From: a virus
Taxonomy: Duplodnaviria > Heunggongvirae > Uroviricota > Caudoviricetes
Strand: one strand, 5' to 3'
Virus record (IMG/VR): IMGVR_UViG_3300037313_000454
Span: 1-33,489 of that record
DNA length: 33,489 nt
Below the pieces are notes generated by a model. That model did no database searches, was not told the origin of the DNA, and saw only the letters and a program-made list of their open reading frames with translations. This document shows positions 10,949 through 22,329 of the stretch, in pieces; within the stretch, counting starts at the first letter, position 1; each line of letters opens with the position of its first letter. A program made the position numbers and the translations under genes.

Positions 10949-11103
10949 ATAGGGACTAGGGTGAACTGACAGTACCTCTGTCAGCATCTACTTACAATAA
11001 GTATGAAACCTTAGTTTTAATGACTCTGCAAATCTACTACGGATTCATATTGACTAAGTGGTTAATAATCAATAATTTAACTAAATACCTATACATATAA
11101 CCC

Positions 11104-11132
11104 TTGACAAATCAACAAGTTAGTGTTATAAT
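11104..11132 (+). promoter_or_regulatory. Consensus sigma70 promoter
   Basis: TTGACA, 17 nt, TATAAT. Confidence 0.9.
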
Positions 11133-11178
11133 GGTATTGTAAAGTAGAGAAAGTACACTCTTCTGAGGGCCGAACCGC

Positions 11179-12057
11179 ATGGATAGTATTGAAAATAAAG
11201 CACAAAGTGCCGTTAACGCACTTTTAGCTATCACCCAACCAACGGTGGATGCCGTTGATGCTCTTAAAGTCGAAGCTCAAACGCAGATTGCCGACCTAAC
11301 GAACAAGTTGCTGGTAGCTACCAATGCTATCGCTGCCGATTCTGTGCAGATACAGAAGCTCAAAGACCAGATTGCTGCATTGTCCATCCCGGCTTATCCC
11401 GGCTTTTCGGACATGCAGATGCATGGAAACTGGGAAGTTCACCCCGGTTCTGAGGCTGGAATCGGGTCTTGGACACCCGGAACCACCTTTTCGCAGACTC
11501 AGTACCAGAAGCAAGGCGATGCACAGTATGCAATGAAACTGTCCATCAAACCAGTCACAGGTGGTTATTCTGATGTCTTGTGGGCCATTCATCGCCGTCC
11601 GGTTCCCAAACCTGCCGCAAAGATGACTTTGAAAGGTCGTCTTTGGATAGACGACAATACAGGCGTTCAGTGCTTGGAAATTGATTCCCTTGTAACCCTC
11701 GGTGGTTATAAGTACAACATGTCTTCCCAGATTAACTATAGCAAGGGCGGAATGTTGCAGGTAGCACACGGCTCTACTTCTTGGTTTGATACACCCATTG
11801 TGGTCGGTAAACTGACCACTGGTGTTTGGCATGAATTCCAATGGGAATATGCCTATGACACGGTCGCCAAGACCTTGTCTTTCCTAGCTTTCACGCTAGA
11901 TGGTGTGCGGTTTACACTACCCACACAGTTCCAGAATATCGCACCAATCGCTACGAATTGGTCAGACGGAGTGCATCTGCAACTCCAACTAGATGCGAAC
12001 AATAAGGGAGTTGGTTATTCCGTTTGGTATGACCGTCTCTCGTATACATTCGAGTAA
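11179..12057 (+). CDS. N-terminal coiled coil plus ConA-like/lectin beta-sandwich domain
   Basis: Heptad-rich first ~70 aa; Trp/Tyr-rich beta domain with LEID, GVWHEFQW, QLQLD, VWYDRL. Confidence 0.7.
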   Translation: MDSIENKAQSAVNALLAITQPTVDAVDALKVEAQTQIADLTNKLLVATNAIAADSVQIQKLKDQIAALSIPAYPGFSDMQMHGNWEVHPGSEAGIGSWTPGTTFSQTQYQKQGDAQYAMKLSIKPVTGGYSDVLWAIHRRPVPKPAAKMTLKGRLWIDDNTGVQCLEIDSLVTLGGYKYNMSSQINYSKGGMLQVAHGSTSWFDTPIVVGKLTTGVWHEFQWEYAYDTVAKTLSFLAFTLDGVRFTLPTQFQNIAPIATNWSDGVHLQLQLDANNKGVGYSVWYDRLSYTFE

Positions 12058-13230: not shown

Positions 13231-13839
13231 ATGATTCCAGTAACACAAAAGCTACTTGAGGAATCAAGCAAGCGAAAACTAACGACCAAAGAGCGCCGTC
13301 AGTGCGTTGTGTATCTGAAGACCACAATCCCAGATACGACGAATACTGAACTAGCGGAACGTTTCGGTGTAACCGAGCGTACTATCCGCCAAGACTTACA
13401 AGCTTTCCGTAAAGAGAAAGCGCAGTTCATCAAAGAAGATGATGTAGGTCTGATTATTGCCGACATCGCGCTCGATTATGAACGGCAAATTAGAGATATT
13501 GAGCGAAGTAAGCAGAAGGCACCGCTAGGCAGCCTTCGTTATTTGCAACATTGCACTAATGCAATGGATTTGCGCCTGAAATGTGTCAAAGCCCTACAGG
13601 ACTTGGGTTACTACCCGAAGAACCTTGGACAGATGACCGTTCAGAAGTTCGACTTTAAGGCCATCGTCAATAAAGACGGCTCCGTTGATGTGATGAAACG
13701 TGAGCAGTTGATTGCCGACCATCGCAAAGATGTAGATGAAGGAAACATCTTGGATGCGGATTATGACGTGCCGGAGCTAGAGAGTGCCGAGGACAAAGAA
13801 ATCCGAGAAATCGGAAACTCCGAAGCAAACTCGAACTAA
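13231..13839 (+). CDS. terS: Terminase small subunit
   Basis: N-terminal HTH (NTELAERFGVTERTIRQDL), helical middle, immediately upstream of TerL. Confidence 0.75.
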   Translation: MIPVTQKLLEESSKRKLTTKERRQCVVYLKTTIPDTTNTELAERFGVTERTIRQDLQAFRKEKAQFIKEDDVGLIIADIALDYERQIRDIERSKQKAPLGSLRYLQHCTNAMDLRLKCVKALQDLGYYPKNLGQMTVQKFDFKAIVNKDGSVDVMKREQLIADHRKDVDEGNILDADYDVPELESAEDKEIREIGNSEANSN

Positions 13840-15247
13840 GCGCAAAGATGTGGTTCAGCTTGAAAAGACATCACCTGCTATCCAAGAACGAGATGCAGCA
13901 GCTTTTCAGCGGGTTCAAGAAATTAAGCTTGAGCTACCAGAACCACACCCTAGACAGTACGAGCTTATATTCGCGTTTGAATTAAACCCCGGCGTTCGTT
14001 TCGTCGCGGGAGCTTGCGGTACTAAATTCGGTAAGACATACGGTTGCACGATTCGCCTTGTCAAAGAGGCGTGGGAGAACGCCAACTCCTTAAATTGGTG
14101 GGTTGCACCTACGTATGACCAGAGCATCATTGCGATGTCGCTGGTTAAGCGCCTTTTACCTCCGGGCATGTTCCTAGAGTATAAGGCCGACCGAAAGATT
14201 ATCCTACTCAACCCGGATGGGTCTGAGCGAAGCCAGATACATTTTAAGTCAGGTGAAAATCCCGACAACCTACGCGGTTATGCTGTAGATTTTTTCGTCA
14301 TTGACGAAGCTGCTCGTATCCCCTACGACTCTTTTGTTTCGGTTATGACTACCGTTACTAAGACAATGGGACGCGGCATTGTCATCTCGACCCCAAAAGG
14401 TCGTGGATGGTTCTACACCGTATACCAGCGGGGTGAGAAGTTCACCCGAGATGGTCGGCAGAAGTACAAACCACATACACCCGGTTGTGGAAAGATAGAA
14501 ACCGGAAGTTGTAAGTGTGTTGATGCTGACCCGTGGCTTGAGTGGAAGGCAATCAAAATGCCTACCCACACCAACCCACACGTTCCTGCTGCGTCTATCG
14601 AAGACGCACGGCGTAACTTACCGGAAGACGTATTCAAGCAGGAATATCTAGCTGAGTTTCTAGATGATTCTGCCGGAGTATTCCGAGGAATCAAGGACTG
14701 TATCCGAGGCACGATTGAACCGCCCAACCCATTACTTCAGTATGTCATTGGGGTTGACTTGGCGCGTATCAATGACTTCACCGTATTAACGGTCATGGAT
14801 AGACAACGAAAGCATGTCTGTCACATTGAACGTTTCAATCAAATTGCGTGGGAAATACAGTACATACGCATCAAAGAACTTTCATTACGTTACAACAGAG
14901 CAGTTTGTGTCGTTGACTCGACAGGTATCGGTGACCCTATATGCGCCGACCTTATCGCTGGCGGCGTTCCCGTAGAACCGTACAAGATTGGCGGGAATAT
15001 AGCCAAGCGGCAACTCATTGAAAAGTTGAGAGTCAATATTGAACAGGGCAAGATATCTTTTCCAGACATTCCGGCCCTTCTCCGCGAGTTAGAGGTATAC
15101 GAATACAGTATCACTGACGGTGGTGTGATTCGGTATCAAGCTCCTGACGGCGAACACGATGACTGTGTTGTATCACTCGCTCTTGCCAACTGGGTCGCTG
15201 ACTGTGACCCGTTCATATATAAGTTCTATCACAAACGGGGTGTTTAA
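13784..15247 (+). CDS. terL: Terminase large subunit
   Basis: Walker A GTKFGKT, Walker B VIDEAA, ISTPKG, nuclease GVDLA and HDDCVVSLALA. Confidence 0.95.
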   Translation: MPRTKKSEKSETPKQTRTKRKDVVQLEKTSPAIQERDAAAFQRVQEIKLELPEPHPRQYELIFAFELNPGVRFVAGACGTKFGKTYGCTIRLVKEAWENANSLNWWVAPTYDQSIIAMSLVKRLLPPGMFLEYKADRKIILLNPDGSERSQIHFKSGENPDNLRGYAVDFFVIDEAARIPYDSFVSVMTTVTKTMGRGIVISTPKGRGWFYTVYQRGEKFTRDGRQKYKPHTPGCGKIETGSCKCVDADPWLEWKAIKMPTHTNPHVPAASIEDARRNLPEDVFKQEYLAEFLDDSAGVFRGIKDCIRGTIEPPNPLLQYVIGVDLARINDFTVLTVMDRQRKHVCHIERFNQIAWEIQYIRIKELSLRYNRAVCVVDSTGIGDPICADLIAGGVPVEPYKIGGNIAKRQLIEKLRVNIEQGKISFPDIPALLRELEVYEYSITDGGVIRYQAPDGEHDDCVVSLALANWVADCDPFIYKFYHKRGV

Positions 15248-15660
15248 TGATAGTTCGGATACACAGAACGCGAATGGCTTATTTTCGCCGCAAAGCGCGG
15301 CAGTGTTATCCGAACGAGATACTTGCATACCTAATCGGTAGACAAGTAAATCGTGGACTTATAGAAGTCCATTATTTATATCACCCAAAGCTAGAACACT
15401 CCTCCTCCATCGCTCTAAAAGAAGCTGACGGTGAAGGATACAAGGCAGAGCAGTTTGCTAAAGATAAAAGTTTGGTCGTGGTTGGTGATGTGCATACGCA
15501 CCCTGATTGGCCCCCGGTCATGTCAGAGACAGACCACCACGACCACAAACTTTGTCTTAATAAGATTTCAGCAATTTTATCCGTTCCCCATAAAGGGAGA
15601 ACACACTTAGTAATCTGGCGCGATGGTACACCATTGCCGTGCAAGATTGAATATTTTTAA
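15247..15660 (+). CDS. Stand-alone JAB/MPN (JAMM) zinc metalloprotease
   Basis: N-terminal Glu (NEILAYL) and an exact HxH-x7-S-x2-D motif (HTHPDWPPVMSETD). Confidence 0.9.
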   Translation: MIVRIHRTRMAYFRRKARQCYPNEILAYLIGRQVNRGLIEVHYLYHPKLEHSSSIALKEADGEGYKAEQFAKDKSLVVVGDVHTHPDWPPVMSETDHHDHKLCLNKISAILSVPHKGRTHLVIWRDGTPLPCKIEYF

Positions 15661-15670
15661 GGAATCATAA

Positions 15671-16279
15671 ATGAAGAATTTACTTTCAATCCTAGATTCT
15701 ATCTTCGGTAAAAAGGGCATGAACCACAAGGTTCGCCCGGATGCCGCGTTCGGTGCTTCTGTTAAGGCACAGACTGCGTTTAATCCCGGTGACATCCAAG
15801 TTCGCAGCCATTACAAGGTAGAGTGCTTCGATAAAGACGGCAACCTGAAGTGGGTTGAGAATGTCTCTAATATCGTCACTACTGCTGGTAAGAACGATAT
15901 TCTTACTCAGTATTTTAAAGGCTCGTCTTACACGGCTACGTGGTTTGTCGGCCTTGTAGACAACGCCTCGTTCTCGGCTTATGCCGCTGGCGATACGATG
16001 TCGTCTCACTCCGGCTGGCTTGAGTCTACTGCTTATTCGAACGCTAACCGTCCGACGCTTACGCTCGGTACGCCTTCTGGCGGTTCGGTAGACAACTCGG
16101 CTTCGGTTGCAGCCTTTACGATTAACGCCACGGCGACGATTCGCGGTGCGTTCATTAATACCAACAACACCAAGGGTGGTACGACTGGTACGTTGTACGG
16201 TGAAGCAGATTTCTCAGCGTCACGCTCGGTTGTGAGCGGCGACACGCTGAACGTTACGGTTACTCTAACCGCAAGCTAA
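15671..16279 (+). CDS. Virion structural protein (tail-fibre/collar-associated type)
   Basis: YKVECFDKDG...NIVTTAG...WFVGL...FTINATATIRGAF...SGDTLNVT pattern typical of phage structural proteins. Confidence 0.7.
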   Translation: MKNLLSILDSIFGKKGMNHKVRPDAAFGASVKAQTAFNPGDIQVRSHYKVECFDKDGNLKWVENVSNIVTTAGKNDILTQYFKGSSYTATWFVGLVDNASFSAYAAGDTMSSHSGWLESTAYSNANRPTLTLGTPSGGSVDNSASVAAFTINATATIRGAFINTNNTKGGTTGTLYGEADFSASRSVVSGDTLNVTVTLTAS

Positions 16280-16295
16280 TTCTAAGGATTAACTA

Positions 16296-17201
16296 ATGGC
16301 TACTACCGGAATTAAACACCGGAAAACGAGTGGCAAAAGTGACGGGGCTGATTCCACATTGGTTCAGCCCTCTAACTGGGATGACACTCATATTACCGAT
16401 GCAGCGGCGTTACTACTAGATACTGACCCGTCTTATTCTGGTGCTAGAACATTTACGCCGCGCGATAACCTGCGTGGTACTGACGGCGGTGCTGGTAGTA
16501 CATACTCGCTCGATGTAATCCCTGACGCAAAAGTAATCGACATATCGGACGACTTCCTTCCAACACTTGCAAATAACAGCATTATTGGACAGTTGGGATG
16601 GGCAGTTCGGAACGACTTTAACGCTGGTTTCTCTGTAGCAAACCAAGCTGCTATTCAGAACCATCCCGGTATAATTCGTCTCACCGCATCCGGTGCAGCA
16701 GTTTCCGGCGACGGGTTTCAGCTTGACCTTGGTGGTCAGTCGTTCGGCGGTACACAATCTATATACGGTTTGGCAAATTTAGCTGGCTGGGAATGTGTAT
16801 GGATTGTTCGTCTAAATCAGACTACTAACTTCCGCATCAGATTTGGCTTCTACAGTGCCACTGGTGGTGGTAGTCCTCCTGAGTTTATTGGCATTCGCTA
16901 TGATACTTCCCTTTCGGATACTGGGTGGAAGGGCGAGGCCAGAACAAGTAGTGTTTCGACAGCAACCTCAGCTTTAGCTACTGTAGATACTAACTTTCAT
17001 ACGTTCAAGATTCGGTCTACTAGTGCTGGAACTATTTTGTTCTCAATTGACGGCGGAAGCGAGTTAAGCCTAAACAGTGGTTTGCCAAGCTCGTCCCAAG
17101 TATTTGTGCCGGGATTAGTTGCGGCTGCTACAGCTTCAAATCCATCATTCAACGCAGATGTTGATTACTGGTCTTTCTACCAGAGGAGCATTTCACGGTA
17201 A
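16296..17201 (+). CDS. Putative receptor-binding or fibre protein with a C-terminal lectin-like fold
   Basis: IKH-K-S...DG-D...VQPSNW...H N-terminal anchor motif; beta-rich C-terminus (FHTFKI, FSIDGG, DVDYWSF). Confidence 0.6.
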   Translation: MATTGIKHRKTSGKSDGADSTLVQPSNWDDTHITDAAALLLDTDPSYSGARTFTPRDNLRGTDGGAGSTYSLDVIPDAKVIDISDDFLPTLANNSIIGQLGWAVRNDFNAGFSVANQAAIQNHPGIIRLTASGAAVSGDGFQLDLGGQSFGGTQSIYGLANLAGWECVWIVRLNQTTNFRIRFGFYSATGGGSPPEFIGIRYDTSLSDTGWKGEARTSSVSTATSALATVDTNFHTFKIRSTSAGTILFSIDGGSELSLNSGLPSSSQVFVPGLVAAATASNPSFNADVDYWSFYQRSISR

Positions 17202-17449
17202 TGGCTAACTTTACGGTTCGTATTCAAAGTGTTTCCGTCAATGGCGTCGGAGATATCGTTGTCTCTTACTCTGCTGATGCGGGGCCGCTAGGCTCTGCGT
17301 CTTCTAGCTGTCACGTAGCCTTTGGTTCATCTGCCGCAGGTATCAACGCGGCGGTTGTAAGTGATGCCAAAACAAAAATGGCACAACTGAATCCGGGTTG
17401 GGTTAACAACGCGAACGACACAATTCAAGTATTCGGTGGAGCAAGCTAA
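17201..17449 (+). CDS. Small structural protein (82 aa)
   Basis: TAATG-coupled, beta-rich, within the structural operon. Confidence 0.7.
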   Translation: MANFTVRIQSVSVNGVGDIVVSYSADAGPLGSASSSCHVAFGSSAAGINAAVVSDAKTKMAQLNPGWVNNANDTIQVFGGAS

Positions 17450-17467
17450 AATTTCCTAGAGGGTTAG

Positions 17468-19381
17468 ATGGCAACAAAATTCTACTTACGCGATACGGTA
17501 TCTAGCGTTAATCCCGGCTCCGATGATGAGCGCGTACTAGATAGAGCAGCCGGGGCTGGTGTTGTTGCTTACGTAAAGAATACCCTCACTGGTGCGGTCA
17601 CTCCACCCACCACTGCAACACAGTTCACTAAAATTGCTGGTGGTACTAACATCATCTGGATTAGTGAGCCTGTAAATGCTGTAACTATTTCAGGTACGGT
17701 CACGTTCAACTTGTGGGCATTTGAATCCGCTGCACAAGCGAACGCGACCGTTACCGCTGAATTACTACGGTGTAGTTCGACAGGTGCGGTTCTTTCAGTT
17801 ATTGCGGCATGTGTATTAAACCGTACTGAAATTGGTACGTCTGCTGCTGTACAGAACTTCACACAGACTCCTACGTCTACCGCACTTTCGACAGGCGATA
17901 GACTCGGAGTGCGCGTCTATATTGACGACGGTAACGCTGTAACTATGGCTTCTGGCCGTACCGTTACCTTAGATATAGAAGGCGGCACTACTGGCTCTGA
18001 CGGAGATTCCTACGTACAGGTAACTGAAACTGTTACTAATGTGTACGCGTTATCAAACTCGCATACGGTTACTACAGGGTATTCTCTGACCCCGGCTAAG
18101 TTAACGTCTGCGTCTATTTCATTAGGCGCTACACTTGCGGCATTGTTTGCAGGCGTTATACCGTCTCCCGCTTTTAACTCGCTTGCCTTTGAACCTACAG
18201 CGTTCTTCGGTGTAGCAGATGGTGGGGGTGGTACAACCTACACCGGAGATGTAACCTTCTCGATTACAGGCGGCTTCTCTGATGTAGTGTCACTTACACG
18301 CCAAGGAGATTTCGCCGCCAGTGTAACTACAGGATTCAGTGATGCACAAAGCCTAATTACGACCGGGTCAATTACCCTGTCTGTCACGGCTGGATTCTCA
18401 CTACTAACACAATTGTTAGCTGTCGCTGCCTTTACCCAAGGCACTACGGTTACCTTTAGTTCCGTTGGTGGAAGTCTATACGCAGCCTCAGTAACTTTCT
18501 CTGAGACGAGCGGATTTTCAACTTCCCACACACTGGGCGTTAACGTGTCTATTCCGCTAACGATTACGGTAACTATATCTGAATCGGCCTTGATGACGGC
18601 TGTTGCTGCTGCGACTGCTGCGGTCACGGTCGGTTATCTGGTTACGGGTGTTAAGACCACAAGCGGGTCAATCACTCTTGCTGAAACTGGCGGCTTTAGC
18701 GCAGCGGTTACAAAAACCGTTGCCGAGCTTATCAGCCTTGCAGTGACGCCGTCTATCGCTGAGACTCCCACGCTTCAAGCAGTTGGTAGCATTACGTTGG
18801 CTGAGAGTACGGCGTTCCAAGTATTCCAAGGCAACTTGGTTACGGGAGCTATCTCGCTAGCGGCGACTATGGGTGTCAGTACATCCACACAGCTTCTAGC
18901 TTCCGCTCTACTTAGCATCGGACTAACGGCTGGGTACAGCTTAAGCACACGGCTTTCTGCCGCTGCTCAAGCAAACGTTACAGCCACGCTGGGATTGACT
19001 CCAACTTCGACTGGTATCCTTAAGGCGTCTACCACAATCGCGGTAACGCCGGATATACAGACAGTTGGAAAATTGGTTCAGAACGCCTTGATTTCTCTGG
19101 GTGTATCTACCAGTTTATCTGCCGCTGTAACCCTGATAATCACGCAGGCAATGTCCTTGGGCGCAACCCTTGGTATTGCTGATAGCAGCTTGGTATTTGC
19201 TTTTCAAGAAGCTGCATACTCTGCGGATTCCGCTGAGGCAGTTCGTACACTGGTCGCACAGACTGTGGAAGCCATCGAGAAATTGGTGGCAAACAGCACT
19301 GATAACGAACTTACACTTGGTGATTTGTCTACCGAAGTGATTGAGAAACTATTGGCAGCTTCAACCGAGGTAAATCCTTAA
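17468..19381 (+). CDS. Ser/Thr/Ala-rich fibre-like protein with 20-aa repeats
   Basis: 637 aa; globular N-terminal ~190 aa then 16 consecutive 20-aa repeats. Confidence 0.8.
   Translation: MATKFYLRDTVSSVNPGSDDERVLDRAAGAGVVAYVKNTLTGAVTPPTTATQFTKIAGGTNIIWISEPVNAVTISGTVTFNLWAFESAAQANATVTAELLRCSSTGAVLSVIAACVLNRTEIGTSAAVQNFTQTPTSTALSTGDRLGVRVYIDDGNAVTMASGRTVTLDIEGGTTGSDGDSYVQVTETVTNVYALSNSHTVTTGYSLTPAKLTSASISLGATLAALFAGVIPSPAFNSLAFEPTAFFGVADGGGGTTYTGDVTFSITGGFSDVVSLTRQGDFAASVTTGFSDAQSLITTGSITLSVTAGFSLLTQLLAVAAFTQGTTVTFSSVGGSLYAASVTFSETSGFSTSHTLGVNVSIPLTITVTISESALMTAVAAATAAVTVGYLVTGVKTTSGSITLAETGGFSAAVTKTVAELISLAVTPSIAETPTLQAVGSITLAESTAFQVFQGNLVTGAISLAATMGVSTSTQLLASALLSIGLTAGYSLSTRLSAAAQANVTATLGLTPTSTGILKASTTIAVTPDIQTVGKLVQNALISLGVSTSLSAAVTLIITQAMSLGATLGIADSSLVFAFQEAAYSADSAEAVRTLVAQTVEAIEKLVANSTDNELTLGDLSTEVIEKLLAASTEVNP
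18245..19204 (+). repeat. 16 x 60-nt degenerate coding repeat
   Basis: Exact 20-aa period, consensus roughly GSITLAxTxGFSxxxxLxxx (e.g. GSITLSVTAGFS, GSITLAETGGFS, GSITLAESTAFQ). Confidence 0.85.
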
Positions 19382-19722
19382 TGTCTAGCGTTAGAAAACG
19401 AATTGTTTATAAGAAGAATAGTCAGTATATAGAAATCGCTGGCCTTACGGATAAGAGTGTAACTCCAAACGTGTTGGTTAACGACGCGACTGGCACGGCT
19501 ACCCTGTACGATGGTACAGGCAACCCTGTGACTGGGGCTACTGGACTAGTTTCTGCTTTTGTTGGAAGCGGTACATACCGTTTCGACTTTAATCCCGCTA
19601 CCTTCGACCCTGCGGTCGCCACGGACTATAAGTTCAAGGCTACCCTTACTTCTGGCAGCAAGATGTTCTACATCGAACTGCCTGTATCAGTACAGGTTCG
19701 TAAAGAAGGTACTGAGGCTTAA
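19381..19722 (+). CDS. Small beta-rich structural protein (Ig-like)
   Basis: TAATG-coupled on both sides; alternating beta pattern. Confidence 0.65.
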   Translation: MSSVRKRIVYKKNSQYIEIAGLTDKSVTPNVLVNDATGTATLYDGTGNPVTGATGLVSAFVGSGTYRFDFNPATFDPAVATDYKFKATLTSGSKMFYIELPVSVQVRKEGTEA

Positions 19723-20711
19723 TGGATTTAAGCATCATCATCGCGCACAGGGACGTGAACGAATTTCCCTGTATAGATTGCAAGACGGGCAAGGCAGTCA
19801 ATGCTTCGGCTGCCGCCCCTCTTGGTCTATGGGTCACAATTCACTCGATTATGGAAGACCTTGAAAACTCAGGACTTTCATATGAATTCTGCATACTCAC
19901 GAATGGTTCTGAAAAGCCACACAGTGATACGCAGAACGTGCTTCATTGGTTAGACCTTACGAAGCACCTTACTTGGGTAGAACACTCTGTGGAGCCTGTA
20001 TCACCGCCCCACGCCCGTCAGCGTTGTACCGAACACGCGACAGGTAAGTATTTGTTCTTCTTTGATAACCATGTGATGGTGAAGCCCGGATACTTTAAAC
20101 GTGCCTTAGAAAGCATGGAGAAGTACCGGATGGATATGCTCCATTCCACTACACGGTTCTTCTTCGGGGAAAAGGATTGTTACCACTACAAACTCAAACT
20201 CAACCAGAACTTCTGGGCTGAGTCTGACTTCGACGCCAAGAGTGAGGAGCCTTATCGCTGCGCTATGGGCGGTCACGGCGGATTTATTGTACGCCGGGAT
20301 GTTTGGGAAGAAGTCGGTGGATACGGATGGGAGAACTTCAAGGGATACGGCGGTGAAGAGTCGTACTTCGACTTGAAGATGTGGCTTCTCGGAAAAGAGA
20401 ACTGGATTGACCCCAAGCTACTGCACTATCACTTTGCAGGTAGCCGAGGGTATAAGCGGCACTACACAGATGAGTTTTTCATCAACATGATGGGTGTCGC
20501 TAACATCATCGGTGGTCAGGACTGGATGTATAAAGTCCAAGACAGCTTTACCCAAAACTACATGAAGATGAAGACGGGTAAGTCGATATTCGACTTGATG
20601 ATTGAAGCAGAAGCTTTGAGCAGCGAACACGCGGCTTGGCTTGCCTCACGAAGAAAACTAACATTAGACGAACTGTTGGATAAGTTTAAAGCCGACGGTA
20701 TCGCTCATTAA
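19722..20711 (+). CDS. GT-A fold glycosyltransferase 1 (GT2/GT27-like)
   Basis: LSIIIAHRD, ATGKYLFFFDNH (DxH), VWEEVGGY, YGGEE. Confidence 0.9.
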   Translation: MDLSIIIAHRDVNEFPCIDCKTGKAVNASAAAPLGLWVTIHSIMEDLENSGLSYEFCILTNGSEKPHSDTQNVLHWLDLTKHLTWVEHSVEPVSPPHARQRCTEHATGKYLFFFDNHVMVKPGYFKRALESMEKYRMDMLHSTTRFFFGEKDCYHYKLKLNQNFWAESDFDAKSEEPYRCAMGGHGGFIVRRDVWEEVGGYGWENFKGYGGEESYFDLKMWLLGKENWIDPKLLHYHFAGSRGYKRHYTDEFFINMMGVANIIGGQDWMYKVQDSFTQNYMKMKTGKSIFDLMIEAEALSSEHAAWLASRRKLTLDELLDKFKADGIAH

Positions 20712-20721
20712 GGCACAAGGG

Positions 20722-22329
20722 ATGGCACTTAGTACACAACTTGAATTCCCTAATCCGTCATATGCGGACGCAGGTACACACACGCTGACGGAAGCTGAAA
20801 AAGCTGAGATTAGGCGGCTGAGAAGTACATGCTCCTTGTATGACCTTTACAGACCTGACTGGGAGTTTAACCTATCGGCATACGAAGGTGGTTCTCAGTT
20901 TATCAATCAGGACAATATATTTAAACATGCCCGTGAACATGACGAGGATTATAAAGACCGTCTGAAACGCGCTCACTATATGAATTACTGTGAGCCGTTG
21001 GTGGAGTTCTTCTCGGACTTCATCTTCGCGGAAACGATTGATAGACACGGCGGCAACAATGCCGATTTCTATACCGAGTTTATCAGCGACGTTAACCGTA
21101 AGGGTGAGTCGATTACCGAGTTCATGAAAGAAGTTTGCTCGGACGACCAGATTTACGGTTTGGTGTATGTGCTAGTGGATTCTCCGGCAGTACCAGAAGG
21201 CCAGAGACTCACTCGCGCACAAGAAAAAGCATTAAAGATTAGACCCTACTGGATTCTGGTCAAGCCGCAGGATGTGCTTGATTGGGTGGTGGACGAGTTC
21301 GACCACTTTACGTACTGGAAGCGATTCCAGCTTATTGAGGATATGTCTACAGGTTCAAGACGCACTCTAGAGAAGTATACAGAGTGGACGCCTCTGGCTA
21401 TTAAGATTAGCCTCATCGACGTAAGCAACCCACAGAAGCCTAGGCTGCTACCCGCGACCATCATCGGTAACAAAATTGGTGAAGTCCCGGTTGTACCGAT
21501 TCGGTATAAACGCAGCAAGCGTTACAAGGAGATGGGCGAGGCTTTCCTGAAAGACCTAGCCATGCAGAATCGTGAGGTTATGAACCTGACGAGTCTTCTG
21601 CAAGAGTTCTTGTACCGCCAGTGCTTCAATATCCTAGCCGTTCAGGTAGATACACAGCTACCGACACAGGAACAGTCCGAGGGTGAAATCGGTACTGCCA
21701 ACATGCTGCACTACCCCAAAGGGGCAGAAGCGCCTGCATATATCTCACCGTCTAGCGACCCCGCTGACAAGATACATGAGGAACGGCAGACCATCGTAAA
21801 CGAGATGTACAAACGCGCTGCACAGGACACAGTCAACGAACTGTTCAATGGTGTGAAGCGTAGCGGATTCTCTCAGGCCCAGTCGTTCAGTACCACGGTG
21901 CCGCGTATCGCGTCCCGCGCTGAGACACTGGAAAAGGCTGAGAACCGCCTGATGGACTTGACCATGAAGTACATGGGCAAGACTTGGGATGGCCGCGTCA
22001 AGTACAAAGACCGTTACGAGTTAACAAATATTACTGACGCTTTATCGCAGCTTACTCAACTGTTCACGCAGTTGCAGATGCCTTCCGAAACGTTCGTCAA
22101 GACCGAGCTTAAACGCATGGTCAAAGAGTTCGACGGTAAGATTCCGGCTGACATCCTCTTGAAGATTGAGGCCGAGATTGACGCGATGAAGTTCAGCGAG
22201 TGGCAAGAGACTATGAAGACCGCTTTGATTGGTGCACCTAAGACCAATGATGGCGCGAATGGTTCTGCCACCCGCAAACCCACTACAACCGCTGAGGCTA
22301 AGTCCGAGGCGACAAAAGGAAAGGGATAA
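20722..22329 (+). CDS. Portal protein
   Basis: 535 aa, helical, AYEGG...DYKDRLKRA...NY start typical of portals; precedes scaffold and capsid genes. Confidence 0.85.
   Translation: MALSTQLEFPNPSYADAGTHTLTEAEKAEIRRLRSTCSLYDLYRPDWEFNLSAYEGGSQFINQDNIFKHAREHDEDYKDRLKRAHYMNYCEPLVEFFSDFIFAETIDRHGGNNADFYTEFISDVNRKGESITEFMKEVCSDDQIYGLVYVLVDSPAVPEGQRLTRAQEKALKIRPYWILVKPQDVLDWVVDEFDHFTYWKRFQLIEDMSTGSRRTLEKYTEWTPLAIKISLIDVSNPQKPRLLPATIIGNKIGEVPVVPIRYKRSKRYKEMGEAFLKDLAMQNREVMNLTSLLQEFLYRQCFNILAVQVDTQLPTQEQSEGEIGTANMLHYPKGAEAPAYISPSSDPADKIHEERQTIVNEMYKRAAQDTVNELFNGVKRSGFSQAQSFSTTVPRIASRAETLEKAENRLMDLTMKYMGKTWDGRVKYKDRYELTNITDALSQLTQLFTQLQMPSETFVKTELKRMVKEFDGKIPADILLKIEAEIDAMKFSEWQETMKTALIGAPKTNDGANGSATRKPTTTAEAKSEATKGKG

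Follow-up and report, generated by a model that had tools for sequence, protein, structure and literature searches.

The soil phage considered here is of the Acidobacteriota-phage type, and its genome, IMG/VR record IMGVR_UViG_3300037313_000454, carries a small gene for a stand-alone protein of the JAMM/MPN+ (Prok-JAB) metallo-isopeptidase type, which is located directly downstream of the gene for the large terminase subunit. The stretch analysed, positions 1 to 33,489 of the record (hereafter the window), makes up the first third of a phage record that is complete, bears terminal repeats and totals 97,489 bp. The gene, referred to here as the JAB gene, spans 15247..15660 on the plus strand and encodes 137 amino acids; its assignment is based on the open reading frame (ORF), the Pfam family PF14464, an AlphaFold2 model, structural Z-scores and the ratio of nonsynonymous to synonymous substitution rates (dN/dS). 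As a preliminary description of this DNA had recognized, the catalytic motif is complete. Glu24, the general base of the JAMM motif, is encoded by the plus-strand codon 15316..15318 within the sequence YPNEIL, and it is combined with the zinc-binding block H83-x-H85-x7-S93-x2-D96 (15493..15534, plus strand), which reads H83-T-H85-PDWPPVM-S93-ET-D96 and thereby completes the pattern E...HxHx7SxxD. All of these residues were read directly from the sequence, and Glu24 as well as the four named residues of the block are invariant in the family. A Pfam scan (E ≤ 0.1) identified Prok-JAB PF14464 (E 4.7e-11, 43 bits versus a cut-off of 25) and no second domain. As Prok-JAB is the sole Pfam domain in the 137 amino acids, there is no fusion to an NlpC/P60 domain, and the view of a stand-alone protein was correct. 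The gene is also real, since dN/dS, at 0.20 in comparison with a 79%-identical relative (0.04 for the terminase), points to purifying selection and the active-site residues are invariant in 49 family members.

The ATG at 15247-15249 and the TAA stop codon of the large terminase (15245-15247) have one A in common, and the resulting TAATG overlap is preceded, with a 6-nt spacer, by a GGGG run that resembles a Shine-Dalgarno sequence (15237..15249 on the plus strand for the whole arrangement, as read from the sequence). The stop/start overlap behind the earlier claim of translational coupling can therefore be seen directly, and it suggests that both genes may indeed be translationally coupled. 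The same combination of TAATG and GGGG occurs in the relatives L004-L007, while in other relatives the two genes are separated by 1-33 nt and a G-rich run is present. A public gene call (P0001, 128 amino acids) lets the protein begin at Met10, which affects the stretch 15247-15273. Residues 1-9 can be aligned throughout the family, and in the structural model they make up the first strand, which is confidently predicted, so that the upstream ATG at 15247, which the preliminary description had chosen, is the better start.

At E ≤ 1e-3, an exhaustive profile search retrieved 225 cluster representatives, and 50 of these reached E ≤ 1e-10. The close family members are almost all 133-148 amino acids long and match over their full length. 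E24, G31, H83, H85, S93, D96 and W124 are invariant among 49 aligned members, and an N-terminal QLxYFRRKAR as well as a C-terminal SxLPCxxEY are hallmarks of the family. The nearest ESM-Atlas cluster is 100% viral. The closest phage isolates infect Tunturiibacter, a genus of Acidobacteriota (PMC11924767), and the host was deduced from these related isolates; among 201 sampled Acidobacteriota genomes, only one contains a true family member. The family is thus compact and almost purely viral. PHROGs holds no family for the protein at E ≤ 1e-3, and nothing in NCBIfam scores above its cut-off.

The AlphaFold2 model of the protein is highly confident, with a predicted local distance difference test (pLDDT) score of 97.8. 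Its best structural match is JAMM1 of Pyrococcus furiosus, both free and bound to the ubiquitin-like protein (Ubl) SAMP2 (Z 19.7, root-mean-square deviation 1.6 Å over 126 residues), and high values were also obtained with the ubiquitin-bound Caldiarchaeum Rpn11 homologue CsRpn11 (Z 18.9) and with yeast Rpn11 (Z 18.6). Z-scores of 15-20 across JAMM1, Rpn11, CSN5, BRCC36 and AMSH assign the model to the MPN fold, and Foldseek agrees with the matches to JAMM1 and Rpn11. It is the archaeal desampylase JAMM1 and Rpn11 that the predicted fold resembles most. At the sequence level, a search against solved structures gave weak matches only, namely to the small Prok-JAB proteins 2kcq and 2kks and to JAMM1.

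The gene is embedded in a plus-strand series of packaging and head genes, to the left of which PolA and other replication genes are encoded on the minus strand. The first gene of the unit (13231..13839, plus strand; Pfam HTH_11) encodes a helix-turn-helix (HTH) protein in the position of a small terminase and precedes the large terminase gene TerL in all relatives. TerL itself (13784..15247, plus strand; Pfam Terminase_6N, phrog_2 at 1.3e-44) lies directly upstream of the JAB gene. Downstream follows a variable, fibre-like cassette of five genes (15671..19722, plus strand), whose products have 202, 301, 82, 637 and 113 amino acids. The first of these (termed p8123-type here) matches phrog_8123 and phrog_240 and, weakly, the GP4 fibre protein Gp80; the others gave no matches. 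By eye, the 637-residue protein displays a periodicity of about 20 residues with the pattern TxGFS. The cassette proteins may serve as fibres of the head or tail or may act in host range. A family 2 glycosyltransferase (GT2) gene and the portal gene (19722..22329, plus strand; Pfam Glycos_transf_2, phrog_145) form a conserved right anchor that is syntenic in all relatives, and the order then continues with scaffold, capsid, a second GT2, adaptor and tail tube. The JAB gene and the packaging genes appear to share a transcript. As promoter and terminator sites between 12 and 21 kb were no more numerous than in shuffled sequence, this transcription unit is deduced from gene packing alone.

How the gene is distributed among related phages is most informative with respect to its role. 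Relatives were collected by exact look-up and via TerL; the metagenomic contigs among them may be incomplete, while Tunturi_4 and G204 are complete genomes. The frame of HTH protein, TerL, GT2 and portal is constant in the relatives, with an interval of variable content from TerL to GT2. From the JAB gene to GT2 (15671-19722 in the window), the slot holds 0 to 8 genes, which differ between relatives. The JAB gene is found together with a cassette in the window and in L004-7, L008, L011, L012, L013 and L016, whereas L015 and L018 contain the JAB gene alone (TerL-JAB-GT2-portal, no fibre cassette). Conversely, L017, L028 and L021 have a cassette without the JAB gene, and Tunturi_4, L019, L020 and L022-27 have neither. 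No Prok-JAB is encoded anywhere in the two complete genomes of this lineage, Tunturi_4 (88 kb) and G204 (100 kb), both of which retain the related terminase. Tunturi_4 even retains the whole related head module with terminase, GT2, portal, scaffold and capsid, and G204 retains the 202-residue p8123-type cassette protein despite the lack of a JAB gene. Mapped onto a TerL tree of 18 phages, the gene has been gained or lost at least three times. As related phages assemble without it, the JAB gene is an accessory and not a morphogenetic gene.

The family is not confined to this backbone. Members were found in Tunturi_4-like siphophages, in Tunturi_3-like podophages and in an integrase-bearing, temperate phage; about half of the siphophage relatives possess the gene, as do all five of the podophage relatives that were examined. 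The Tunturi_3-like podophages use a different terminase of 680 amino acids and carry the JAB gene 2-3 kb upstream of TerL, where it is part of a small-gene block; gp141 of Tunturi_3, annotated as a "minor tail protein", truly belongs to the family (32% identity, E 7e-21). This pre-terminase block (8440-10621 in L001; also in L040, L043, L067 and L071) consists of the JAB gene, genes for a protein of 100-190 and one of 72 amino acids, a dual-specificity phosphatase (DSP)-type gene, a gene for a His-rich protein of about 110 amino acids (not detected in L043 and L071), a gene for a protein of about 66 amino acids and then TerL. In the temperate phage, the JAB gene is located after an exonuclease gene. 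In two unrelated backbones, the gene occurs within 2.5 kb of the large terminase and on the same strand. No neighbouring gene shared between the backbones was found, and this includes the small gene downstream of the JAB gene. This comparative distribution indicates that the protein can hardly be a head protease, that the p8123-type protein does not require it, and that it has no travelling partner.

The phage protein resembles several known JAB systems without matching any of them completely. Like JAMM1 (5LD9/5LDA) and the Caldiarchaeum Rpn11 homologue (6FNN/6FNO; PMC6043591), it is a minimal single-domain MPN+ protein of about 130-150 amino acids with the same motif, but the sequence identity to these is just 16-21%, and unlike them, which are encoded alongside their own Ubl and activating enzyme (E1), it occurs in a phage genome in which neither a Ubl nor an E1 family was detected. 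With the NCBIfam desampylase model NF041370 it reaches 16.6 bits versus a cut-off of 130, which is far from an equivalog match. With gpK of phage lambda it shares the phage-encoded JAB domain, the HxH...S..D motif and late expression. However, gpK combines JAB with NlpC/P60, is encoded beside the Ubl-like gpI and belongs to the tail tip, whereas the protein described here lacks a C40 domain and is encoded between the terminase and the portal region, and no homologue of gpI (Lambda_tail_I, PF06805) is present in the whole genome. A RadC profile did not match in the Pfam scan at E ≤ 0.1, and RadC proteins were found only as weak fold matches in BFVD, with template modelling (TM) scores of about 0.4.

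Solo JAB genes in phages are already known and annotated, and several entries of BFVD are among them. Tunturi_3 gp141 and the "protease" of actinophage Patience (BFVD G1JWD0) are likewise small and encoded in or near packaging and head modules, although the actinophage head-module proteins are relatives at the fold level only (TM 0.5-0.55). The nearest JAB proteins outside the family, P0060 and P0090, are also encoded on phage-like contigs. One of them lies near a gene of the Gad2 family (L051 7171-7911, Pfam Gad2, anti-Gabija), three genes downstream of the JAB gene, which does not suggest anything specific.

A partner within the phage was also looked for. No match to ThiF, ThiS, Prok_Ub, ubiquitin, Lambda_tail_I or Prok-E2_B was obtained at E ≤ 1 in the complete 97,489-bp genome, so that the earlier observation of no recognizable Ubl, E1 or conjugating enzyme (E2) gene in the window holds for the entire phage; as this absence is defined at the Pfam level, a divergent beta-grasp protein could escape detection. 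Small ORFs were inspected as possible Ubl precursors. An 82-amino-acid ORF in the cassette (17201-17449), whose product ends in VFGGAS, has no homologue and is absent by BLASTP from L008, L011, L012, L013 and L004; its single-sequence AlphaFold2 model is weak, with a pLDDT of 69.7 and the order beta-beta-beta-alpha-alpha-beta, which is not that of a beta-grasp fold. A genome scan for small ORFs ending in GG gave no other credible candidate, and the ORF at 93460-93810 overlaps a longer ORF on the opposite strand.

As no modifier or E1 could be detected in the phage, and as the gene is dispensable and mobile and its family viral, a conjugate made by the host is favored as the substrate. Our best guess, a tentative one built on circumstantial evidence, is that the protein strips host-attached conjugates as a counter-defence. 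The more specific proposal that this viral JAB family, as a phage counter-defence, takes host-attached conjugates of the ubiquitin-like (Bil/Bub) or Cap2 type off proteins of the phage or the host appears rather unlikely. The protein is expected to be catalytically competent, and its chemistry is hardly doubtful: with zinc held by H83, H85 and D96, E24 as general base and S93 to stabilize the intermediate, it would hydrolyze a peptide or isopeptide bond. In the matched structures of JAMM enzymes, the cleaved bond follows the extended C-terminal tail of the Ubl (PMC300881, PMC6043591), and the phage protein would most likely cut the (iso)peptide bond that follows a host-attached modifier's flexible C-terminal tail. 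Candidate targets would be a Bil- or Bub-type Ubl on virion proteins, or a Cap2-conjugated nucleotidyltransferase of the cGAS/DncV-like type (CD-NTase), and the stripping would take place late in infection. Bil is known to conjugate a Ubl to the central tail fibre of phages late in infection (bioRxiv 10.1101/2023.09.04.556158), and Cap2 conjugates CD-NTases, a conjugation that is reversed by Cap3 (PMC10097602).

Such systems do occur in the host phylum. Among the 201 Acidobacteriota genomes, G201 contains a complete BilABCD operon (L063 6661-9548; PADLOC scores of 182, 206, 221 and 572 bits), and two, G114 and G105, contain operons with a Cap2-like E1-E2 protein and a JAB protein. In these loci (L064 5954-11022 and L065 6097-11127), the Cap2-like gene is followed by the JAB gene beside ORFs of CD-NTase size, and they are probably type II cyclic-oligonucleotide-based antiphage signalling systems (CBASS). 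On the phage side, an Acb2_Tad1_hairpin protein (36 bits versus a cut-off of 27) is encoded 0.7 kb downstream of the JAB gene in L040/L041. This protein of 70 amino acids (L040 7150-7362; L041 1415-1627), encoded between the JAB gene and the dual-specificity phosphatase upstream of the terminase, is likely a cyclic-nucleotide sponge. The idea of the preliminary description that a phage deconjugase removes host Ubl tags from virion proteins is not contradicted by these data, and it gains circumstantial support from the patchy occurrence and mobility of the gene, the lack of a partner, the Acb2-like neighbor and the BilABCD operon in the host phylum, but no specific kinship of the protein with Cap3 or BilC is apparent.

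The lack of such a kinship is the first of several points that weigh against a counter-defence role. Cap3 and BilC are stand-alone JAB isopeptidases of about 150-170 amino acids that reverse Ubl-type conjugation, which is the activity proposed for the phage protein, but they are host proteins encoded within E1/E2 operons, whereas the neighbors of the phage gene are the terminase and fibre-like genes. The PADLOC models give only superfamily-level scores for the phage protein (23 bits for the Cap3-type, 22 bits for BilC), compared to 221 bits for the genuine acidobacterial BilC, and an hhalign comparison with the latter reaches 94% probability over the catalytic core only. The preliminary description had proposed a phylogeny as a check of such relationships. 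In a tree of Cap3-like proteins, BilC, lambda K and bacterial JABs, a branch with 96/98 support separates the family from the acidobacterial Cap3-like proteins, and the small bacterial JABs of G076, G200 and G042 are likewise split from it by a supported branch. Deep nodes are unsupported, and BilC and lambda K form long branches whose placement is not supported. The protein is not a member of the gpK, Cap3, BilC or RadC groups. In addition, the Acb2-like neighbor is restricted to one podophage sub-lineage, and anti-defence genes are less commonly part of late structural operons such as the one that contains the JAB gene. Of the host-phylum genomes sampled, only about 1% were seen to carry a Bil system and only about 1% a Cap2 system, compared to a JAB gene in about half of the siphophage and all five podophage relatives, so that a commoner target may exist. 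Whatever goes beyond an active JAMM peptidase in our functional statements, the substrate included, we infer from distribution and context. A last point is the association of the gene with one particular cassette type.

The combination of a large fibre-like gene and a gene for a protein of about 110 amino acids was found in JAB-carrying loci only (6/6), and the latter protein is absent from the JAB-less genomes and from the loci that contain the JAB gene alone. It has no known family and is always encoded directly after the large fibre-like gene (window 19381-19722; L008 14963-15232; L011 9727-10089; L012 12318-12641; and twice in L013, at 11084-11413 and 14727-15032); it may act in fibre assembly or at the fibre tip. 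The JAB protein could be an accessory processing peptidase that trims or matures a component of this cassette or another virion protein, and for the JAB domain of lambda gpK a role in the processing that accompanies tail-tip assembly has indeed been proposed. The location immediately ahead of the fibre-like cassette, within a late structural operon, the 6/6 co-occurrence and the recurrent proximity to the large terminase in two unrelated backbones all agree with such a role. However, L015 and L018 possess the JAB gene without the cassette, G204 has the p8123-type protein without the JAB gene, the Tunturi_3-like and temperate phages carry it among unrelated genes, and neither a Ubl-like nor a gpI-like partner was found in the complete genome. 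The co-occurrence itself can also be explained by physical linkage and joint transfer, as the JAB protein of L008 is relatively closer to that of the window than the L008 TerL is to the TerL of the window. Given the 6/6 co-occurrence, the JAB gene may be linked to the large-fibre cassette type, but we regard trimming of a virion protein as an unlikely function.

A host-takeover enzyme, which would act on precursors or conjugates of the host's sulfur-carrier-type Ubls (CysO, MoaD, ThiS or TtuB type) or on another host protein and would redirect metabolism or translation independently of any defence, is clearly improbable. Its attraction lies in the fact that, of the solved structures, the small bacterial and archaeal Prok-JABs 2kcq, 2kks and JAMM1 match best by sequence, and that weak bacterial matches to the family profile (about 40 bits) occur in 14 of the 201 Acidobacteriota genomes, which means that cellular JABs, and possibly their Ubl substrates too, are not rare in the host phylum. 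Against this stand the lack of sulfur-transfer or cofactor genes beside the JAB gene, the supported branch that separates the family from the small bacterial JABs, and the low score with the desampylase model.

The preliminary description had alternatively suggested a maturation protease for the adjacent fibres. A role as maturation protease, for the head in particular, would agree with the absence of a detectable classical prohead protease between portal and capsid and with the position in the packaging and head region, but it is contradicted by the complete Tunturi_4 and G204, of which Tunturi_4 forms heads with related genes and neither encodes a JAB protein, by the independent occurrence of JAB gene and cassette (L015, L018, L017, L028), and by a scaffolding protein in the module, which makes a prohead protease dispensable as in the P22-, T7- and phi29-type heads that assemble with a scaffold and need no protease, so that we consider such a role in head maturation extremely unlikely.

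The removal of host-attached conjugates as a counter-defence therefore continues to be our best guess. In the literature searched, no report was found of a phage-encoded JAB protein that counters Ubl-based defence or reverses such tagging. Bacterial ubiquitin-like conjugation acts in defence, with Bil tagging the central tail fibre and Cap2 priming CD-NTases, and the JAB family described here would be a candidate for a phage enzyme that reverses host tagging. It is small and appears soluble, its motif lends itself to a clear catalytic mutant, and one member, Tunturi_3 gp141, belongs to a cultured phage-host pair with Tunturiibacter psychrotolerans. If the true target turns out to be a phage protein instead, a function could for the first time be assigned to the numerous solo JAB genes that still lack an explanation in the packaging and head modules of phages.

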